Virus record (IMG/VR): IMGVR_UViG_2563366946_000012
Direction: 5' to 3' (one strand)
Length of the DNA stretch: 37,467 bases
Source: a virus
Lineage: Duplodnaviria; Heunggongvirae; Uroviricota; Caudoviricetes
The notes below the pieces were generated by a model. It did no database searches and was not told the DNA's origin. It saw only the letters and a program-made list of their open reading frames with translations. Positions 2,965 to 34,818 of the stretch are shown here, piece by piece (position 1 is the stretch's first letter; the number at the start of each line of letters is the position of its first letter). Both the position numbers and the translations under genes were made by a program.

Positions 2965-3302
2965 AGCAGCTCCTGAGTCCGGGTCTGTCCGTCTGAGCCT
3001 TTCCAGCTCACCCGGAGCGTAAGATGTTCGCCGTCGACGGCGGGTTTAACTGACATAAGCTGGCAGCGGGGCTCCCAGCGCCGGATGGCATCGACGGATT
3101 CGCGCACCACATGCGGAATGGCCCGGTCTACAGGCCAGTCGATATAAAGATGCAGATTGCTGCCGAACTCCGGGCGATGCGGGTCGCTGCCGCGGGGAGT
3201 CCGCAGGATAATTTGAATCGCCTGCCGGATATCATCCAGCCCCCGGACAATTTCGCCGGGAGCCTGCAGGGCTGGTTGCCAGAATACTGAGGTCGTTTTC
3301 AT
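2955..3302 (-). CDS. Baseplate wedge protein, GPW/gp25-like
   Basis: 115-aa ORF between the spike and J-like genes; size and position match the GPW/gp25 family. Confidence 0.65.
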   Translation of the reverse strand: MKTTSVFWQPALQAPGEIVRGLDDIRQAIQIILRTPRGSDPHRPEFGSNLHLYIDWPVDRAIPHVVRESVDAIRRWEPRCQLMSVKPAVDGEHLTLRVSWKGSDGQTRTQELLWR

Positions 3303-3356
3303 GGGGGCAGTATTGCCCCCGTGCGGGAACGCTGATATTAAAGGCGTTTAAGAAGC

Positions 3357-9632: not shown

Positions 9633-9729
9633 GATTGTGCTCCTGTGTAAGTTCAGGGCAGTATGTCGGGAGAAGCGCGTGACGGATATTAAAGGAGATT
9701 AAGAAGAAGGGGCCGGAGCCCCTGTGATG

Positions 9730-15546: not shown

Positions 15547-15760
15547 TTTGCTGTCCCGCGTTATGTTGTCGGAGACAGTTTGTGAGAAATGCAGGCCCGG
15601 CGATTTTAATCTGCTTTAGAAAACATCAGGGGAGAAGGACAGGGAAAGCAATGCGGTGAACCGGAGGCGGTTATAAAACAGAGGCTGTAAAGCCTTTATA
15701 AAGGTAATACAGCCCCTCATTCGCTGGCAATGATAAATCACCCGCCTGAAGAGAGAAAAC

Positions 15761-21941: not shown

Positions 21942-22659
21942 AACTGCTGCCTCCCCATGTGAGATATCGTGGTGCCAGTTCGCGCAGGATGCGCTGCGGA
22001 TAATGGCGGTTCTCCCGCCAGCTGGCCGCATTGCGTCCGGCATTCACCGTGGCGACATGTCCGAACCAGCGGGTGCTGTCCAGACCTTTCTGTGATGCAA
22101 GCCGCCTGTCCCGTTGTACCCAGCCCAGACCACCGTTATAGCCCGACAGTGTCATGGCCATACGCTCGCAGTCGTTGGCGGCGCTGACGCGCTGCCACAG
22201 CCAGCGGTCATAGCTGACCAGCGCCCGGATAGCCCATGCCGGATTAAACGGCTCACGACTGCTCAGCATCGGTATCAACTGGCTTATCCAGTCGGCAGTG
22301 GCAGGCATGAACTGCGCCAGTCCCTGAGCGCCAGCCGGCGAGACCGCATCAGGTCGCCAGCCGCTTTCCTGATGCAGTTGCGCGGCGAAATCGGCCACCG
22401 GCGCAGACAGTCCCCATTCAAGCCGGGCATTACGGATCACATCATCGCGATACTGCAGCGCAGCCTGCGGGGGCTGCGCTGCGCATGCCTGGCTGAAAAA
22501 GCCGCCACACCAGAGCAGCCAGACAATCACCAGGTTGCCAGCAAGCTGCCACCAGAAGCTGTATTTATCGTTACGTGGTTCTCCGTGTCTGATGGCGGTT
22601 ACGCCCAGACCAAAGGCGAACAGAATAATGAGGGTGATTTGAGGCCAGTTCATGGTCAC
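21925..22659 (-). CDS. Endolysin, soluble lytic transglycosylase (SLT) domain with N-terminal signal-anchor (SAR-type)
   Basis: Contains …QLHQESGWRPDAVSPAGAQGLAQFMP…, the catalytic-Glu block of SLT domains; N-terminal hydrophobic segment WPQITLIILFAFGLGVTAI. Confidence 0.8.
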   Translation of the reverse strand: MTMNWPQITLIILFAFGLGVTAIRHGEPRNDKYSFWWQLAGNLVIVWLLWCGGFFSQACAAQPPQAALQYRDDVIRNARLEWGLSAPVADFAAQLHQESGWRPDAVSPAGAQGLAQFMPATADWISQLIPMLSSREPFNPAWAIRALVSYDRWLWQRVSAANDCERMAMTLSGYNGGLGWVQRDRRLASQKGLDSTRWFGHVATVNAGRNAASWRENRHYPQRILRELAPRYLTWGGSSCVASG

Positions 22660-23039
22660 AGTCCTGTTGCCACAGCCAGACAGACCGCTGCAACAATCAG
22701 TGCACGGCGGATTAACGCAGCAGAAAATACAAGGTGAAGGCCGGTCTGCACAGGGAAACGCCCTTCAGCCATCAGCCTGTCTTCATGTTTCAGGTACTGA
22801 CCGGGACGGGCTTTGGGGAAGAGCGAACGGTCAAGCCAGTAACCCAGCACTGCTGCCAGCGTGATAAGTGCCAGCTTGTAGATCACAACAGGCAACTGCT
22901 GTGGCGAGACCAGAGCGATGATGCCCAGCAACAGCACTGAGGTCAGCAGCCAGCCGCTGAGGCGAGGTTTTTTAACAGGGGGAATGAATTTTTTCAGGTT
23001 TTTCATGTGTGTCTCCTCGTTTGGTGGAGACAGCATCAC
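22656..23039 (-). CDS. Putative holin/pinholin (first gene of the late operon)
   Basis: 127-aa ORF (GTG start in track; internal ATG giving MKNLKKF… near 23006) with 2-3 predicted TM helices, overlapping the endolysin start. Confidence 0.5.
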   Translation of the reverse strand: MMLSPPNEETHMKNLKKFIPPVKKPRLSGWLLTSVLLLGIIALVSPQQLPVVIYKLALITLAAVLGYWLDRSLFPKARPGQYLKHEDRLMAEGRFPVQTGLHLVFSAALIRRALIVAAVCLAVATGL

Positions 23040-23120
23040 AAATGTGGCGGGATACGGATTTTAAACAGCGTTAATAGTGAAGATGTAAACGTGCACTGCA
23101 TGATGACTTTGAAAGAACGA

Positions 23121-23148
23121 CCAGCCCGGTACCCGAACACCGGGCTGG
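23121..23148. promoter_or_regulatory. Perfect 10-bp inverted repeat with 8-nt loop upstream of the late operon (activator site or minus-strand terminator/insulator)
   Basis: ccagcccggt-acccgaac-accgggctgg read directly from the sequence, about 85-130 bp upstream of the holin start. Confidence 0.4.
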
Positions 23149-23194
23149 CCATCGCCCCACAGGAATGCGCTGTGAGCCGACCGAGGTTCAGTCA

Positions 23195-23234
23195 GTCTCG
23201 CGAGACCAGACTAGCCTGCCATATTTTTTATAAT
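23195..23234 (+). promoter_or_regulatory. Methyltransferase promoter region: 12-bp palindrome GTCTCGCGAGAC and consensus -10 hexamer TATAAT
   Basis: Palindrome at about 23195-23206; TATAAT at about 23229-23234, about 20 bp upstream of the ATG at 23254. Confidence 0.45.
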
Positions 23235-23253
23235 TGTAAAAGGCTTACAGATT

Positions 23254-24024
23254 ATGAAAATGCAGACATTACCCATCGTTCCATGGATTGGTGGCAAACG
23301 CCGCCTTGCAAAACACATCCTGCCGTTGTTTCCGGCGCATGAATGTTATGTGGAGCCGTTTTGTGGGGCAGCAGCGCTCTATTTTCTTAAGGTACCCGGC
23401 AAGATCGAAGTCATTAATGATATCAACGGTGAACTGGTGAACCTGTATCGGGTGGTAAAACATCATCTGGAAGAATTTGTACGCCAGTTCAAATGGGCGC
23501 TGGTCAGCCGGCAGATCTACAAATGGCTGCAGATCACCCCGGAAGAAACACTGACGGATATCCAGCGTGCAGCACGGTTCTACTACCTTCAGAAGCAGGC
23601 GTTTGGAGGCAAGGTGGCGGAGCACAGCTTTGGTACCTCCACCATATCCCCGCCACGCTTCAACCTGCTGCGTATTGAAGAAGAACTGTCAGCGGCACAC
23701 CTGCGGCTTTCCAGAACGGTCATAGAACACATGGACTGGCAACAATGCATAGAACGATATGATCGCCCGCATACGTTGTTCTACTGTGACCCTCCATACT
23801 GGGGAACGGAAGGTTATGGTGTGGAGTTCGGACTAGAAAATTATGATCATATGGCAGATTTAGCACGCAGGATCAAAGGGAAGATGATTATATCGGTGAA
23901 CGATATCCCGGAAATGCGGCAGGCATTCAACGGTCTAAATATTCAGTCGGTTGATATCAGCTACAACCTCAAGATCACTGGCAAATCCAGTCGCAAGAAG
24001 GAACTCATTATCCTCAACTTTTGA
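23254..24024 (+). CDS. Orphan DNA N6-adenine methyltransferase (Dam-like, alpha class)
   Basis: N-terminal AdoMet-binding block (VEPFCGAAALYF), C-terminal catalytic DPPY (FYCDPPYWGTEGYG), about 256 aa; no adjacent restriction endonuclease gene. Confidence 0.85.
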   Translation: MKMQTLPIVPWIGGKRRLAKHILPLFPAHECYVEPFCGAAALYFLKVPGKIEVINDINGELVNLYRVVKHHLEEFVRQFKWALVSRQIYKWLQITPEETLTDIQRAARFYYLQKQAFGGKVAEHSFGTSTISPPRFNLLRIEEELSAAHLRLSRTVIEHMDWQQCIERYDRPHTLFYCDPPYWGTEGYGVEFGLENYDHMADLARRIKGKMIISVNDIPEMRQAFNGLNIQSVDISYNLKITGKSSRKKELIILNF

Positions 24025-25219
24025 CCGAATAGTAAGACTTCATGCAGTGAATCAAGTACTGCATGAAGTCAAGGGCTGGTTTTGTGTACCAAAAATAAAC
24101 AGTGATAGCGGTAATAATTCCCATAACTAGAACACCACGTATAATCCAGAACGTACGTTTCTGCGTGTCTAGTCGCGCAGAAATACTGCTAAATACACCA
24201 GCCACGTCATCTTTAATGAAGGAATATTCCTTATTAATCTGTTTTTCTTTGTATTCAATTTCTTCGCCTAAGGCCTTTATAGATTGCATCTGGTTCGAAA
24301 GTGCCAGCCAGATTAACGTTGCAGCAAAAATGCATCCCAGAAGAATTATTGTGTTTGTTATCCCTTGGCCTGACCATTTCGTAGCCACTTTGAATTGGGT
24401 AGCTACGATAACAGAGGCAACAGGAATGCCAAGTATATGGTTCTGGATATCTGAAAACGCTTTGTGGATTTTACCCATTTCTTCGACTTTTGCAGCACGC
24501 AGTTGATCCATTACTTTGTCATAAGAGAATCCAGAAGAGTAGATACGATACCCTTTCAGAAACTTTTCATGCAGACGCTGAATATTGTCCAGTAAATAAG
24601 CGAATACTAGAGGTGAATCAATTCCATCACTAACTGCTTGGATACTTTCAATCAGAATATCTAGCTTCTGATCCTTATGGGTATCATCATTGAAACAAGC
24701 TATAAGGTTATCAAGATACTCTCTTTGCAAATTTTGTACATTTTCTGCAGCGAAGTGCGGTAATAGCTTGATAACTTCTTTTTTCAGAAAAACTAACTGA
24801 CAAGTTGAGTTATCAAAGTAGGCCGCGGCCTCTTTTAGCAGGTTAACGAACTCGAGAATCTTCCGGTAGTTGCTGATGAAAACGGGGATATCTTCATCAT
24901 CATTACGAAACTTTGTTTCTAGGATGAAGTAATTAGCTGGCTCAAGGCACTGATGCTTTGGAGCATTTAGCAATTTTTCATGGGTGGAAAACACAAGTCC
25001 CAGTCCACTCCGTGGTGACGTCACACGTAGGATGATCGTGTTACCTGGAGCGATAGTGCCTGTATCAATAGAAAGACCATATTCACGAGGATCATCAAGC
25101 AAAGTATCAACCAGATCACAATCGGACTGATCTAAGAGCAACAGCGAACCGACACGAAACCCCTCTTGGAATTCCATACGACGATACAGAGCTGTCAGCA
25201 TCTCAAATGAAATCGCCAC
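24014..25219 (-). CDS. Cassette gene 2: protein with large cytoplasmic N-terminal domain and two C-terminal transmembrane helices (candidate effector)
   Basis: 401-aa ORF; hydrophobic helices near residues 295-320 (ITNTIILLGCIFAATLIWLALS) and 360-385 (FWIIRGVLVMGIITAITVYFWY). Start is 2 nt after the stop of the upstream gene; AT-rich by eye. Confidence 0.6.
   Translation of the reverse strand: MAISFEMLTALYRRMEFQEGFRVGSLLLLDQSDCDLVDTLLDDPREYGLSIDTGTIAPGNTIILRVTSPRSGLGLVFSTHEKLLNAPKHQCLEPANYFILETKFRNDDEDIPVFISNYRKILEFVNLLKEAAAYFDNSTCQLVFLKKEVIKLLPHFAAENVQNLQREYLDNLIACFNDDTHKDQKLDILIESIQAVSDGIDSPLVFAYLLDNIQRLHEKFLKGYRIYSSGFSYDKVMDQLRAAKVEEMGKIHKAFSDIQNHILGIPVASVIVATQFKVATKWSGQGITNTIILLGCIFAATLIWLALSNQMQSIKALGEEIEYKEKQINKEYSFIKDDVAGVFSSISARLDTQKRTFWIIRGVLVMGIITAITVYFWYTKPALDFMQYLIHCMKSYYSVKS
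24036..24087 (+). terminator. Rho-independent-type terminator hairpin downstream of the methyltransferase
   Basis: Perfect 13-bp inverted repeat gacttcatgcagt / actgcatgaagtc with 9-nt loop (about 24036-24070), followed by GGTTTTGTGT; overlaps the last codons of the convergent minus-strand membrane-protein gene. Confidence 0.5.
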
Positions 25220-25221
25220 GA

Positions 25222-26229
25222 TTAAACCTCAGTCATCCACATTTCCCTAAATTCTTCAGGTACATTACGTAGGGTGATAATATTTGTTTCCGGATCATAA
25301 TCAATATAGCCTTCAGTTTTCCCTTCCCGGTCAAACTTAAGTTCCCAATATTTAGACTTGCCTTTAAAAGATACCAGAGCCCGAATGACTCGACCATCAG
25401 GAACGAAGCCATCCGATAACTCCAACTCTTCAGCAGCAAGTTTACCAGATAACTCCTCGGGAGCCTGGGGCCAAATGGCATTAACAAGGGTTTCAAGACT
25501 AAGTGGTTCACCAGCCTTACTTAGTGCATGTAAGTGTTCAAACGCACTCTTAAGAAATGCATCTTTTTCAGCGCCGTCAAGTCCTTTCTCTGCCGCAAAT
25601 GCTTTTAAAACGTCACGTAACTTTTCAGACTCTCGTTTGGCGATTAAGACATCATTACAGCCGAGGAACTGTTTAAAATAGTTTGAAACATTACCTTGCC
25701 CCTTAAGAAAACTGATATAGCGCTCTGCGCCACTTTCCCACGCGGTTAAGTCAATGCGCCCAGCCATACGCAGCTTAGCAATATCAAGATAGGTACTATC
25801 TTGGATGTTAAAATCATCTGTGACAGTGGACCCAATGGTAGCGCTTACAATAGCTATCAACAGGTGTTCATTGTGTCCTATCACGATATTTGCAAAAAGA
25901 ACATAACCACCAGTAGCCATGTTTTCTCGCTGAGAACGTTCCGTCAGGTGATGCATCATTCGGCAGGAACTTTGGTAGAAATCATCAACACCTTCGAGAA
26001 AGTCCCCAGCCATTCGTTCCATAGGATAGTTATCCGTATCGCCTTCAAAATAGCCATAACCTTTACCTGTGCGTCCTGCATATTTTGCACAAATATCGTT
26101 TATAAGGCGCTGGGAGGCTTCAGTAACTAGACCTTCTTCAGGACTCAATCTCTCAGAAGCGTCTCCATTTTGTTGTTTGTCTAAAATGTGAACTACAACG
26201 TGTTTAACTTCAATGGTCTGCTCAGACAT
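25222..26229 (-). CDS. Cassette gene 1: YejK/NdpA-like (NA37 family) nucleoid-associated protein homolog
   Basis: 335-aa ORF with blocks recalled from E. coli YejK (…GGYVLFANIV…HLLIAIVS…YLDIAKLRMAGRIDLTAWESGAERYISFLKG…FKQFLG…). Good RBS (AAGGTGGA) before the ATG; begins 70 bp downstream of the repressor stop on the same strand. Confidence 0.55.
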   Translation of the reverse strand: MSEQTIEVKHVVVHILDKQQNGDASERLSPEEGLVTEASQRLINDICAKYAGRTGKGYGYFEGDTDNYPMERMAGDFLEGVDDFYQSSCRMMHHLTERSQRENMATGGYVLFANIVIGHNEHLLIAIVSATIGSTVTDDFNIQDSTYLDIAKLRMAGRIDLTAWESGAERYISFLKGQGNVSNYFKQFLGCNDVLIAKRESEKLRDVLKAFAAEKGLDGAEKDAFLKSAFEHLHALSKAGEPLSLETLVNAIWPQAPEELSGKLAAEELELSDGFVPDGRVIRALVSFKGKSKYWELKFDREGKTEGYIDYDPETNIITLRNVPEEFREMWMTEV

Positions 26230-27335: not shown

Positions 27336-28247
27336 ATGGGACGCACCAAATCACCGGTTAGCACTGAACTGAACGTCGAGGTACCGCTGTCGGATGATCT
27401 CAATGTCAGTCTAAACGCCATGACACAGCATCGCATGGAAATCATGCAACAGTTCGGCGATGGTCTGCCCTATGAGCGCGATCGTGTTGTCCATGAGGCA
27501 CGCTTTTATATGGCACAGAGCGCTGAGGCCATGCTGGAGGCAGGTAAGCGGCTGATAATCCTTAAGGAAAATGAACCACACGGGGAGTTTATAAAGATTC
27601 TTGAAAGTGAGTTGGGGCTGGCATACCGGACATCTGTGAGAATGATGCAAGCATCGACAAAATACTTATCCCCGGCGCTGAAACCAAATGTGCCAACGTT
27701 GGCACATTTGGGAAAAGCCAAACTTTTCGAATTAATGACAGAAGACGACGAAGAGCTTGCCGAACTGGCCGACGGCGGCACAGTTGCCGGCCTGACGCTT
27801 GACGACGTTGATCGCATGTCAGTACGTGAATTGCGTCAGGCCCTGCGCGAAGCGCGCGAAACCAACGCAGCACAACAGCGCGTACTCGCTGACAAAAATG
27901 AAAAAATAGACTCACTCTCCACCAGACTGGAGAAGAAATCCCGTATTCAGCCGCCTGAGCCTGATGAAGAGGTTAAGAAGCTGCGGGCGGAAGTGACAGC
28001 ATTAGCGGTTGAGGCGGAATCTGCTATCGCCGTTCGACTGTCCAGCGCTTTTGAGACGCTGTGCGCATATTGTGCTGAAAACATGATTGATACCCCCAGA
28101 GACTTCATGGCAGGCCTGGTCTGTCAACTGGAAAGCACAGCGCGTAGCCTGCGCTCCACATTTGACCTGCCGGATGAGCCAACAGGCAATGCCGCGCCTT
28201 CATGGCTGACTGAGCCGACGCCACAGATTAACGGGCTGGAGGCATAA
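27336..28247 (+). CDS. Hypothetical early protein
   Basis: 303-aa ORF with strong RBS (AAGGAG) upstream of the transposase; acidic, helical; no family recognised. Confidence 0.45.
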   Translation: MGRTKSPVSTELNVEVPLSDDLNVSLNAMTQHRMEIMQQFGDGLPYERDRVVHEARFYMAQSAEAMLEAGKRLIILKENEPHGEFIKILESELGLAYRTSVRMMQASTKYLSPALKPNVPTLAHLGKAKLFELMTEDDEELAELADGGTVAGLTLDDVDRMSVRELRQALREARETNAAQQRVLADKNEKIDSLSTRLEKKSRIQPPEPDEEVKKLRAEVTALAVEAESAIAVRLSSAFETLCAYCAENMIDTPRDFMAGLVCQLESTARSLRSTFDLPDEPTGNAAPSWLTEPTPQINGLEA

Positions 28248-34015: not shown

Positions 34016-34457
34016 ACAACGTCTTATCCAGCTCATTCATATTGCCCGTAATGAACTGGGTATGGATGAAGACACCTACCGCCAGATGTTACAGGGGCTG
34101 ACCGGTAAAGCCTCAACCAAAGGAATGGATACCACACAACTAAACTGCGTGCTGGAATCCATGAAAAGGAAAGGCTTTCGCGTTAAGCCTGCCAGAAAAG
34201 CCAGCTCCGGTTTACCGCTGGATAACCATCCGCAGTCCAGGAAAATCCGTGCGCTATGGCTTGAAATGGCTGCTGCCGGCATTGTTCGTGACCGTTCAGA
34301 AAATGCATTAGCGCGGTGGATCAAGCGGGAAACGGGCATCAGCGCCCTGCGCTGGCTCAATACTGAACAGGCAAGCAGTGTTATTGAGAAACTGAAGAAG
34401 TGGCAGCACAGAGCTGCGGGAGTAAAACATGAGCGACCTGAATCAGTTTCGAAGTAA
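34005..34457 (+). CDS. gemA: GemA-like regulatory protein (Mu gp16 family)
   Basis: MMTKQRLIQLIHIARNELGMDEDTYRQMLQGLTGKASTKGMDTTQLNCVLESMKRKGF… resembles GemA; ATG preceded by AAAGGAG. Confidence 0.65.
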   Translation: MMTKQRLIQLIHIARNELGMDEDTYRQMLQGLTGKASTKGMDTTQLNCVLESMKRKGFRVKPARKASSGLPLDNHPQSRKIRALWLEMAAAGIVRDRSENALARWIKRETGISALRWLNTEQASSVIEKLKKWQHRAAGVKHERPESVSK

Positions 34458-34818
34458 AGGGCCGGAACTCTTGGTGGAGCTGGCACAGCATACCTCTGAG
34501 ACCGTTCGCGAGATTATTGATATTGAGCCCGCAATTGCCGACCAGATTGGTCAGGCCGTCGCGAACCGCATGATGCAGGTCTGGGGCGGGCAAAACGTTT
34601 ATTTCCCGATGGGCATGGTATGGAAGGTCAGTCAGCGCGACCGGGAAATCTTCAGGGAGTTTAACGGACGTAACCACCATGAACTGGCCCGCAAATTTGG
34701 TGTTTCGCTTCAGTGGGTCTACAGCGTGGTTAAGCGGGTAAGAAAAGAAGAACTGGATCGGATGCAGGGCAAGCTATTTGCTGATGAACCCGATGTAGAT
34801 ACGGAGAAAAAAGAGTAA
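34429..34818 (+). CDS. mor: Mor-family transcriptional activator (middle operon regulator)
   Basis: 129 aa; …QVWGGQNVYFPMG…RDREIFREFNGRNHHELARKFGVSLQWVYSVVKRVRKE… matches the Mor/C-family C-terminal HTH pattern; last gene before the prophage end. Confidence 0.75.
   Translation: MSDLNQFRSKGPELLVELAQHTSETVREIIDIEPAIADQIGQAVANRMMQVWGGQNVYFPMGMVWKVSQRDREIFREFNGRNHHELARKFGVSLQWVYSVVKRVRKEELDRMQGKLFADEPDVDTEKKE

Follow-up and report, generated by a model that had tools for sequence, protein, structure and literature searches.

The window analysed here, a stretch of 37,467 nucleotides from a caudoviricete virus record (IMG/VR IMGVR_UViG_2563366946_000012), is a BcepMu-type transposable (Mu-related) prophage of E. 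coli. The same prophage is present identically in E. coli chromosomes, among them those of TUM13754 and AHB24, and a related phage record, PhiKM, is classified as Bcepmuvirus. A 1.1-kb query around the inverted repeat that concerns us was matched in part by 636 of 5426 complete E. coli genomes (~12%). The gene layout was taken from the NCBI PGAP annotation of an identical copy, together with the reading frames of the window, and is given here with the repeat itself.

Up to the holin gene (ATG at 23006), minus strand: tail, head and lysis genes, running leftward (PGAP)
23121..23148, minus strand: core of the inverted repeat (hairpin H3 below), with arms at 23121-23130, CCAGCCCGGT, and 23139-23148, ACCGGGCTGG, 10 nt each, 8 nt apart and 100% complementary
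23254-24024, plus strand: D12-class (Dam-like) adenine methylase gene, running rightward (PGAP)
Right of the methylase gene, minus strand: genes for a 401-aa protein, an NA37 nucleoid-associated protein and an HTH/CI-type repressor (PGAP)
Beyond the repressor gene, plus strand: early operon with DDE transposase, ExeA-type ATPase, Gam, a gp16-like protein and Mor (PGAP)
34429-34818, plus strand: the single Mor-family protein (Pfam Mor, 1.3e-43)

The repeat sits between the divergent holin and methylase genes. This annotation agrees with the layout assumed in an earlier note on this DNA, which had been made from the sequence alone: the late genes and the repressor cassette share the minus strand, and the cassette lies beyond the methylase gene. 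The note had recognised no separate C-like activator in the window, and we likewise found one Mor-family protein only, with 31% identity to Mu Mor and 37% to Mu C.

The 10-8-10 inverted repeat that had been reported at 23121-23148 was recovered by a repeat search and by direct reading. The whole window has four perfect inverted repeats with arms of 10 bp or more and a loop of 3-12 nt, compared to a mean of 0.37 in 100 dinucleotide-preserving shuffles, and in the 247-bp intergenic region such a repeat arose in only 5 of 3000 shuffles. The inverted repeat is non-random. On the minus strand, which we also call the late strand, it lies 115-142 nt upstream of the holin ATG at 23006, the start chosen by PGAP in the identical E. 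coli record, and 82-109 nt upstream of an alternative holin GTG at 23039. The distance of about 85-130 bp to the first late gene given earlier was thus roughly right. The minus-strand tail that was said to follow the hairpin is also present, as UCGUUCUUUC at 23120-23111. Two readings of the repeat had been offered: a binding site for a Mor/C-family activator at the late promoter, and a minus-strand intrinsic terminator that prevents read-through from the repressor cassette into the lysis genes.

Pairing and conservation of the three-hairpin module

For comparison we assembled about 110 related prophages, from which 57 distinct copies of the element, representing at least 12 enterobacterial genera, were aligned in late-strand orientation. 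The RNAalifold consensus of the 57 copies had three domains, H1, H2 and H3, over ~115 nt, and H3 is the inverted repeat. The parts of this module in the window are as follows.

23178..23221, minus strand: H1, a compound hairpin around the invariant palindrome GTCTCGCGAGAC (23195-23206), from RNAalifold
23156..23176, minus strand: H2, the hairpin CUCACAG/CUGUGGG, with 7 pairs including U·G and a hypervariable loop of 6-7 nt, from RNAalifold
23116..23153, minus strand: extended H3 stem, in which 5' GAUGG (23153-23149) pairs with UCGUU 3' (23120-23116) through G·U and A-U pairs, for 15-16 pairs in total
23111..23120, minus strand: U-rich tail UCGUUCUUUC, directly after the core stem; the extended stem can take in the first five of these bases
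23097..23120, minus strand: block A, TCGTTCTTTCAAAGYCATCATGCR, conserved beyond the need of a terminator tail where the holin gene adjoins the element (alignment, 7 genera)

Read as minus-strand RNA, H3 folded with 16 pairs, G·U included, at -32.2 kcal/mol (z = -4.4, with none of 200 shuffles as stable), compared to only 10 pairs and -23.2 kcal/mol for the plus-strand RNA; for the 119-nt module the corresponding values were -54.0 on the minus strand and -42.5 on the plus strand. The outer pair of the extended stem was A-U in 33 copies, G·U in 23 and G-C in one, and the extension positions become A·C mismatches when read on the plus strand. Most relatives have an H3 stem of 11 bp with a loop of 6 nt. 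As in an intrinsic terminator, the stem-loop is stable and G+C-rich, with a core of 10-11 bp that consists mainly of G-C pairs.

The strand-specific pairing was observed directly in the alignment. Across the 855 cells of the 15-pair H3 stem, the minus-strand RNA had 684 Watson-Crick pairs, 167 G·U pairs and 4 mismatches (99.5% paired), compared to 684 Watson-Crick pairs, 3 G·U pairs and 168 mismatches (80% paired) for the plus strand or a DNA dyad, although the 57 sequences are related by descent and such cell counts overstate the number of independent events. Among the cells that departed from the commonest pair, 17 were fully compensated, and 55 were G·U on the minus strand as against 3 on the plus strand. 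Double changes occurred at six H3 pairs. The compensated examples include the innermost pair, where U-A became C-G or A-U, and two positions at which C-G became U-A, and in two divergent lineages a change of A-U to G-C came together with one of G-C to A-U. Variants that are G·U on the minus strand were found at eight or more pair positions and in several loop backgrounds, compared to two positions for variants of the plus-strand type. Shifting the 3' partners by 1-3 columns lowered H3 pairing from 99.4% to 24-48%.

Similar behaviour was seen in the rest of the module. H1 and H2 had the same minus-strand bias in pairing; in H2, 100% of the cells were paired on the minus strand, and where it has a U·G pair the plus strand has a C·A mismatch. 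Loops were free to vary between copies while the stems were kept. On this comparative evidence, the pattern is that of selection on a late-strand RNA helix, and not on a symmetric protein site in duplex DNA.

Parts of the module are conserved in sequence as well as in pairing. The tail GTCGTTCTTTCA (also given as UCGUUCUUUCA) was invariant in 56 of the 57 distinct copies; in the remaining one (L011) its first T is replaced by C. Past the tail, the sequence differed between module types. Residues 28-68 of the window row of the alignment, which form the H1 region, were almost wholly invariant in the 57 copies. In some loci with inserted genes, a second copy of block A follows a decayed hairpin upstream of the lysis promoter. 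H1 and block A are both more nearly invariant than would be expected of a plain terminator.

The module boundary could be read from partial matches. More than 500 E. coli records matched only rightward from window position 23104 or 23110, into the methylase gene, and other E. coli records matched the holin side only, up to 23077. Homology broke directly after TGAAAGAACG, the late-strand U-rich tail, and in several relatives the repeat was separated from the holin gene by one to three additional genes (DUF2441 and others). Because the E. coli matches run into the methylase gene while the left-hand modules differ, the repeat travels with the methylase. In 113 of 114 loci the methylase ATG lay ~45 nt to the right of the element. 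One locus (L006) kept H1-H3 without the promoter region or the methylase. The module is tied to the methylase gene more tightly than our reading would account for. Exact copies of a conserved 21-mer by the repeat, TTCAGTCAGTCTCGCGAGACC, turned up in 49 viral and 47 metagenome contigs and in 12 species genomes from other genera, which include Pantoea, Mixta, Erwinia, Trabulsiella, Buttiauxella and Limnobaculum.

A search of positions 22500-24200 against all 4227 Rfam families gave no match up to an E-value of 1. With a 181-nt query, the sRNA Xoo8 (RF02243) had given a truncated match of 20.1 bits, far below its gathering threshold of 90, which was gone with 411 nt; we discounted it as a chance match. 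Xoo8 is the lpxC-ftsZ intergenic RNA of Xanthomonas (PMC3039613). A small late-strand protein was rejected as well, since the frame from the sole ATG of the element has three codons before its stop (AUG GCA GGC UAG). Structure on the plus strand, either a terminator or a methylase 5' leader, did not fit the plus-strand tail CCAUCGCCCC, the weaker plus-strand fold or the 20% of stem cells that are mismatched there. A literature search on small RNAs or late promoters of BcepMu-type E. coli prophages found nothing relevant, and the module is undescribed there. The element is absent from Sp18, a Mu-like prophage of E. coli Sakai for which Term-seq and dRNA-seq data exist; Sp18 is of another family, with the classical layout of Mu.

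Mor-type promoters of the late region

The Mor site of Mu is a dyad of 16 bp, in which two 5-bp arms flank a 6-bp spacer rich in G/C (PMC4390567). It spans -51 to -36, with its centre at -43.5, and lies ~22 nt before the -10 of a promoter that has no -35 (PMC4287176, PMC4390567). We placed Mu Pm in the Mu sequence by means of -57G, -55A and -54A (PMC4390567) and the interval -51 to -36 (PMC4287176), and read it as the dyad AGTAA-AGCCGG-TTAAT, 22 nt, and TATCCT.

In the window, TTAA-N6-TTAA has three occurrences only. The longer pattern TTAA-N6-TTAA-N23-nAnnCT, with one mismatch allowed, gave four matches compared to 0.29 expected, and none of 100 shuffles reached four. All four matches are on the late strand and in late intergenic gaps, before the lysis, head, tail and baseplate blocks.

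23032..23075, minus strand: P_lys, upstream of the holin gene (pattern at 23074-23032), with the dyad ATTAA-CGCTGT-TTAAA (23075-23060), 22 nt, and the -10 GATGCT (23037-23032)
15619-15577, minus strand: putative Mor-type promoter before the protease/scaffold gene (pattern search)
9702-9660, minus strand: putative Mor-type promoter before the tail assembly/tape measure genes (pattern search)
3351-3309, minus strand: putative Mor-type promoter before the gp25/W baseplate gene (pattern search)

Transcription from P_lys would start near 23025, 19 nt before the holin ATG. The P_lys dyad lies 47 bp downstream of the repeat, which would place the repeat at about -96 to -123. The P_lys motif was invariant across 7 genera, and BcepMu has CTAA-AGCCGA-TTAA-N23-CAAGAT upstream of its holin gene. 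By geometry and position, the TTAA-N6-TTAA sites are the predicted Mor-type late promoters of the prophage, four in number. It is plausible that the single Mor-family protein would drive all of them, with no C protein involved. The earlier suggestion that Mor may act here directly, without C, is consistent with the single Mor protein and the four Mor-type motifs; where it went astray was the site of action, which is not the repeat. The palindrome GTCTCGCGAGAC of H1 was also considered as a Mor site, and was rejected for its mismatch to the recurring motif.

Leftward transcription and the role of the hairpin

Strand-specific pairing, the invariant tail and the module boundary all speak for the earlier reading of the repeat as a minus-strand terminator. 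As in a terminator, pairing has been kept on one strand, where G·U is tolerated and A·C is not, and the loops are variable. The part of that reading that fits less well is the U tract. In the tail UCGUUCUUUC, U makes up 6 of 10 bases in an interrupted tract, and with the G·U-extended stem formed, the unpaired tail is CUUUCA only. A simple terminator consensus scan had no match at the site, because the tail is interrupted and its first five bases can pair. We therefore speak of a terminator-type hairpin.

Which RNA might end here depends on what is transcribed leftward. The repressor, NA37 and 401-aa genes lie upstream of the hairpin on the same strand, but the opposite-strand methylase gene lies in between. 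The 401-aa gene overlaps the methylase stop by 11 bp, as it does in a Mixta relative, and no canonical terminator was found at the 401-aa/methylase junction, where the sole hairpin (24036-24070, 13 bp) lies within coding sequence and has a poor tail. Leftward transcripts must therefore cross the methylase gene antisense, toward H1-H3.

Relatives with other cargo have minus-strand terminators between the repressor/cargo genes and the late operon: CCGGAAAGCA-UUG-UGCUUUCCGG followed by UUUUGUUUC in one locus (L003), and CAGCCC-UUC-AGGGCUG followed by UUUCUGUUC in the CE10 type. A canonical terminator after the repressor or last cargo gene in these relatives indicates that leftward lysogenic transcription is ended before the late region in the family. 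Since some relatives end the repressor transcript upstream already, insulation from that operon can be only part of the story, and the methylase-linked hairpin is not the sole barrier. The earlier claim that the terminated RNA is read-through from the repressor cassette gains from the antisense route through the methylase gene, and loses from these upstream terminators and from the tie of the module to the methylase. BcepMu has no hairpin upstream of its lysis promoter. The notion of a terminator that always stands directly upstream of the lysis promoter was dropped, as it fails both in BcepMu and in some loci with inserted genes, where the hairpin has no replacement.

A local source of leftward RNA may also exist.

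23233..23260, minus strand: candidate sigma-70 promoter, uncertain, with the -35 TTTTCA (23260-23255), 16 nt, and the -10 TACAAT (23238-23233); 9/12 in a promoter scan

Its -35 overlaps the methylase ATG (23254), and a start near 23226, 5-8 nt before H1, would give a predicted RNA of ~115 nt. The -10 of relatives reads TATAAT, TACAAT, TACAGT, TACTGT or TACATT; in about half of the loci it reads TGCAAT, with G at -11, which makes the local promoter uncertain. Because H3 is the last of three methylase-tied hairpins, the transcript that ends there may be local, instead of or besides the repressor read-through.

We conclude that the repeat encodes an RNA hairpin of the minus strand, probably a terminator or 3' stem-loop placed before the Mor-dependent lysis promoter, that insulates the late operon. 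H3 and its invariant U-rich tail would end leftward transcription, either factor-independently or as a 3' stem-loop. The leftward RNA could come from a local promoter back-to-back with the methylase, from repressor/cargo read-through antisense to the methylase, or from both. A stop 47 bp upstream of the Mor-dependent lysis promoter would then keep the lysis-head-tail operon silent until Mor is made. The repeat, its strand-specific pairing, the constant tail, the boundary that follows it, the link to the start of the methylase gene and the separate Mor-type motif were all observed, whereas we infer termination itself, the transcript that ends at the hairpin and late-operon insulation as its purpose.

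Readings at the DNA level fare poorly against the strand-specific pairing. That the repeat is the DNA site of a Mor/C-family activator driving the late promoter is scarcely credible, and this half of the earlier proposal appears largely refuted by the sequence. The 28 bp of the repeat are not excluded by size alone, since C tetramers are reported to cover ~26 bp of promoter DNA (2025 preprint), but its 10-bp G+C-rich arms and 8-nt spacer contradict the 16-bp Mu site, whose arms are A/T-rich and 5 bp long and whose 6-bp spacer is G/C-rich. The repeat is a dyad and does precede the first late gene, yet none of the hexamers 22-23 nt past it (CAGTGC and AGTGCA on the minus strand, GTGAGC on the plus strand) has both the A at position 2 and the T at position 6 of a -10. 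The element does not recur in the window, either as a second paired half-site copy with 2 mismatches allowed or as a similar inverted repeat; the flank beyond its tail differs between relatives; and its symmetry as DNA is broken in the 168 of 855 stem cells counted above, compared to 4 mismatches as minus-strand RNA. The Mor site of Mu does overlap a terminator-like dyad, but here it is another dyad, with the exact geometry of Mu Pm, that stands at the four late promoters and in BcepMu. It is very unlikely, too, that the repeat acts as DNA in some other way, as the operator of a different regulator (for example at the methylase promoter) or as a recombination or cruciform site. The repeat does lie exactly at the mosaic junction, with different cargo in relatives, and ~105 bp upstream of the methylase start; however, the modules of mosaic phage genomes often meet at terminators, so no special site is needed for the junction. 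One-sided substitutions, which disrupt the symmetry of the DNA yet leave the RNA of a single strand paired, argue against a DNA site, as do the compensated double changes, which keep the pairing and alter the sequence that a protein would read.

A different RNA-level reading is that the hairpin is the terminator of an independent phage small RNA of ~115 nt (H1-H2-H3), divergent from the methylase promoter region and mainly regulatory, acting perhaps on the methylase or on mRNAs of host or phage, and not chiefly insulating. We regard this as a tentative alternative. It overlaps with the insulating terminator, and the difference is which function matters. The three hairpins with their minus-strand-specific pairing and hypervariable loops are what such an RNA would have, and both the single-stranded and the H1 sequence are near-invariant in at least 12 genera. 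The methylase ATG at its ~45-nt distance in 113 of 114 loci, the lack of an Rfam family for the module, and the retention of the element in relatives that already terminate the repressor transcript upstream also favour it. The promoter-like TTTTCA-16-TACAAT would put the start 5-8 nt before H1, but in about half of the loci its -10 is TGCAAT, and the overlap with the ribosome-binding site and start codon of the methylase gene confounds its conservation. In addition, the 3' U tract is short for an Hfq-type RNA, and in locus L006 the three hairpins occur with neither the promoter region nor the methylase gene. It is conceivable, if somewhat doubtful, that an undescribed RNA of ~115 nt, shared by BcepMu-type prophages across at least 12 enterobacterial genera and present in ~12% of complete E. 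coli genomes, is made back-to-back with the orphan methylase and would regulate the methylase or the lysogeny-lysis decision.

Taken as a late-strand terminator, the hairpin would be an element of an ordinary kind, in an instance not yet described; the three-hairpin RNA attached to it might prove new. In BcepMu-type phages the repressor and cargo genes point at the lysis genes, so something must stop lysogenic transcription from leaking into a lethal operon. The hairpin is a good candidate for this barrier in the methylase-carrying variants, which are present in ~12% of complete E. coli genomes. Late transcription in the BcepMu-type family has, to our knowledge, not been mapped. The analysis separates the putative barrier from the likely real activator sites, offers four candidate Mor-type late promoters for the family, and makes the three-hairpin, methylase-linked RNA a concrete candidate for a new phage non-coding RNA.

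Comparison with known phage systems

Mu offers the nearest parallel known: it already has terminators ahead of activator-dependent late promoters, and the arrangement in the window is not surprising in kind. At Mu Pm, a hairpin of AAAGCCGG-TTAA-TCCGGCTTT followed by seven T adjoins or overlaps the 16-bp Mor dyad; we take this hairpin to be the terminator of the early operon. The window resembles Mu Pm in having a G+C-rich dyad and a T run, on the strand of the downstream operon, directly before a Mor-type promoter with a -10 and no -35. In both, the upstream transcription unit would be closed where the activator-dependent unit begins. The two differ in that the U run is canonical in Mu and interrupted in the window, and in that the Mor dyad, overlapped by the hairpin in Mu, lies 47 bp from it in the window. 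The window hairpin also closes a series of three conserved ones and is linked to a methylase gene of the opposite strand.

A second likeness concerns the promoters. The four 16-bp A/T-armed dyads of the window, with a G/C-rich 6-bp spacer and 22 nt to the -10, compare with Mu Pm, Plys, PI, PP and Pmom and with the lysis region of BcepMu. This likeness to the Mor/C-dependent promoters of Mu and to the lysis region of BcepMu belongs to the neighbouring element, and the repeat shares none of those features.

The mom promoter region of Mu combines a DNA-modification gene with an oppositely oriented RNA polymerase site. The promoter region of the methylase gene in the window may do the same, its opposite RNA polymerase site being a candidate, and we offer the parallel as a lead only. 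It has its differences: the window methylase is a D12-class adenine methylase and not Mom, and no Mor-type dyad was found upstream of it. We know of no structured RNA or terminator described in the mom region.

In lambda, a short transcript from PR' (6S RNA) ends at the terminator tR', directly upstream of the late lysis genes. By analogy, lambda and the window may both have a short leftover transcript that ends directly before a lysis-head-tail operon. No Q-like protein was seen in the window. The lambda terminator tR' is read through by Q antitermination from the same promoter, whereas the late operon of the window would have an activator-dependent promoter of its own, downstream of the hairpin.

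Conserved and mosaic stretches around the hairpin module

The three-hairpin module attached to the methylase start contains the palindrome GTCTCGCGAGAC (23195-23206), which, together with about 40 nt around it, was essentially invariant in all 114 of the loci compared, across many genera. Conservation of the palindrome and its flanks exceeds what RNA pairing alone would need. A further role is possible, either as operator of the methylase promoter or as a sequence recognised in the RNA.

Downstream of the last hairpin (inverted repeat 23121-23148), block A TCGTTCTTTCAAAGYCATCATGCR (23097-23120) was also kept across genera. Some insert-bearing loci (L015, L016, L021, L067 and similar) carry a second copy of block A upstream of the lysis promoter; this copy, with a decayed version of the hairpin in front of it, overlaps the inserted gene's end. 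The segment 23077-23110, which separates the hairpin tail from the lysis promoter, is a hot spot of mosaicism, as seen in the relatives L002-L005 and L116. These either have DUF2441, a gene annotated 'ABC transporter ATPase', or several small unknown genes at the equivalent position, or are devoid of the methylase module altogether.

Other inverted repeats and the cargo pair

Two further long perfect inverted repeats were found in the window, both intragenic:

27684-27711, palindrome CCAAATGTGCCAACGTTGGCACATTTGG with 12-bp arms, in the early-operon DUF3102 gene
22455-22482, perfect inverted repeat with 11-bp arms, in the transglycosylase gene

Within 24014-24070, the convergent methylase and 401-aa genes overlap by 11 bp, an arrangement shared by a Mixta prophage (L007 6612-6622), and the final codons of the 401-aa gene contain a perfect inverted repeat of 13 bp (24036-24070, -21 kcal/mol). 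This gene forms, with that for an NA37 (NdpA-like) nucleoid-associated protein, a minus-strand cargo pair adjoining the repressor (24014-26229). The 401-aa protein has membrane segments in its C-terminal part; it was assigned no family by Pfam, and in PADLOC it weakly matched KwaA, from the Kiwa defence system (E = 8e-5). Possibly the two genes form a cassette for defence or superinfection exclusion.

Candidate Mor-dependent late promoters

Four minus-strand sites in the window share one geometry (TTAA-N6-TTAA, 23 nt, nAnnCT) and are candidates for Mor-dependent late promoters:

23032-23074, minus, upstream of the lysis block
15577-15619, minus, upstream of the head block (protease/scaffold)
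9660-9702, minus, upstream of the tail-assembly/tape-measure block
3309-3351, minus, upstream of the baseplate block (gp25/W)

At the baseplate candidate (3300-3314), only 6 nt separate the end of the -10 hexamer AATACT from the gp25/W ATG (3302). If this is the true gp25/W start codon, the baseplate transcript would have almost no leader or none.

BcepMu has the same motif upstream of its holin gene (L117 11485-11527). In phage Mu (L114 674-702), where we positioned the Mor dyad from published promoter positions, this 16-bp dyad overlaps a canonical terminator-like hairpin that is itself 3' of the mor gene. Thus, while 'terminator' and 'Mor site' coincide in Mu, they are separate elements in the window.
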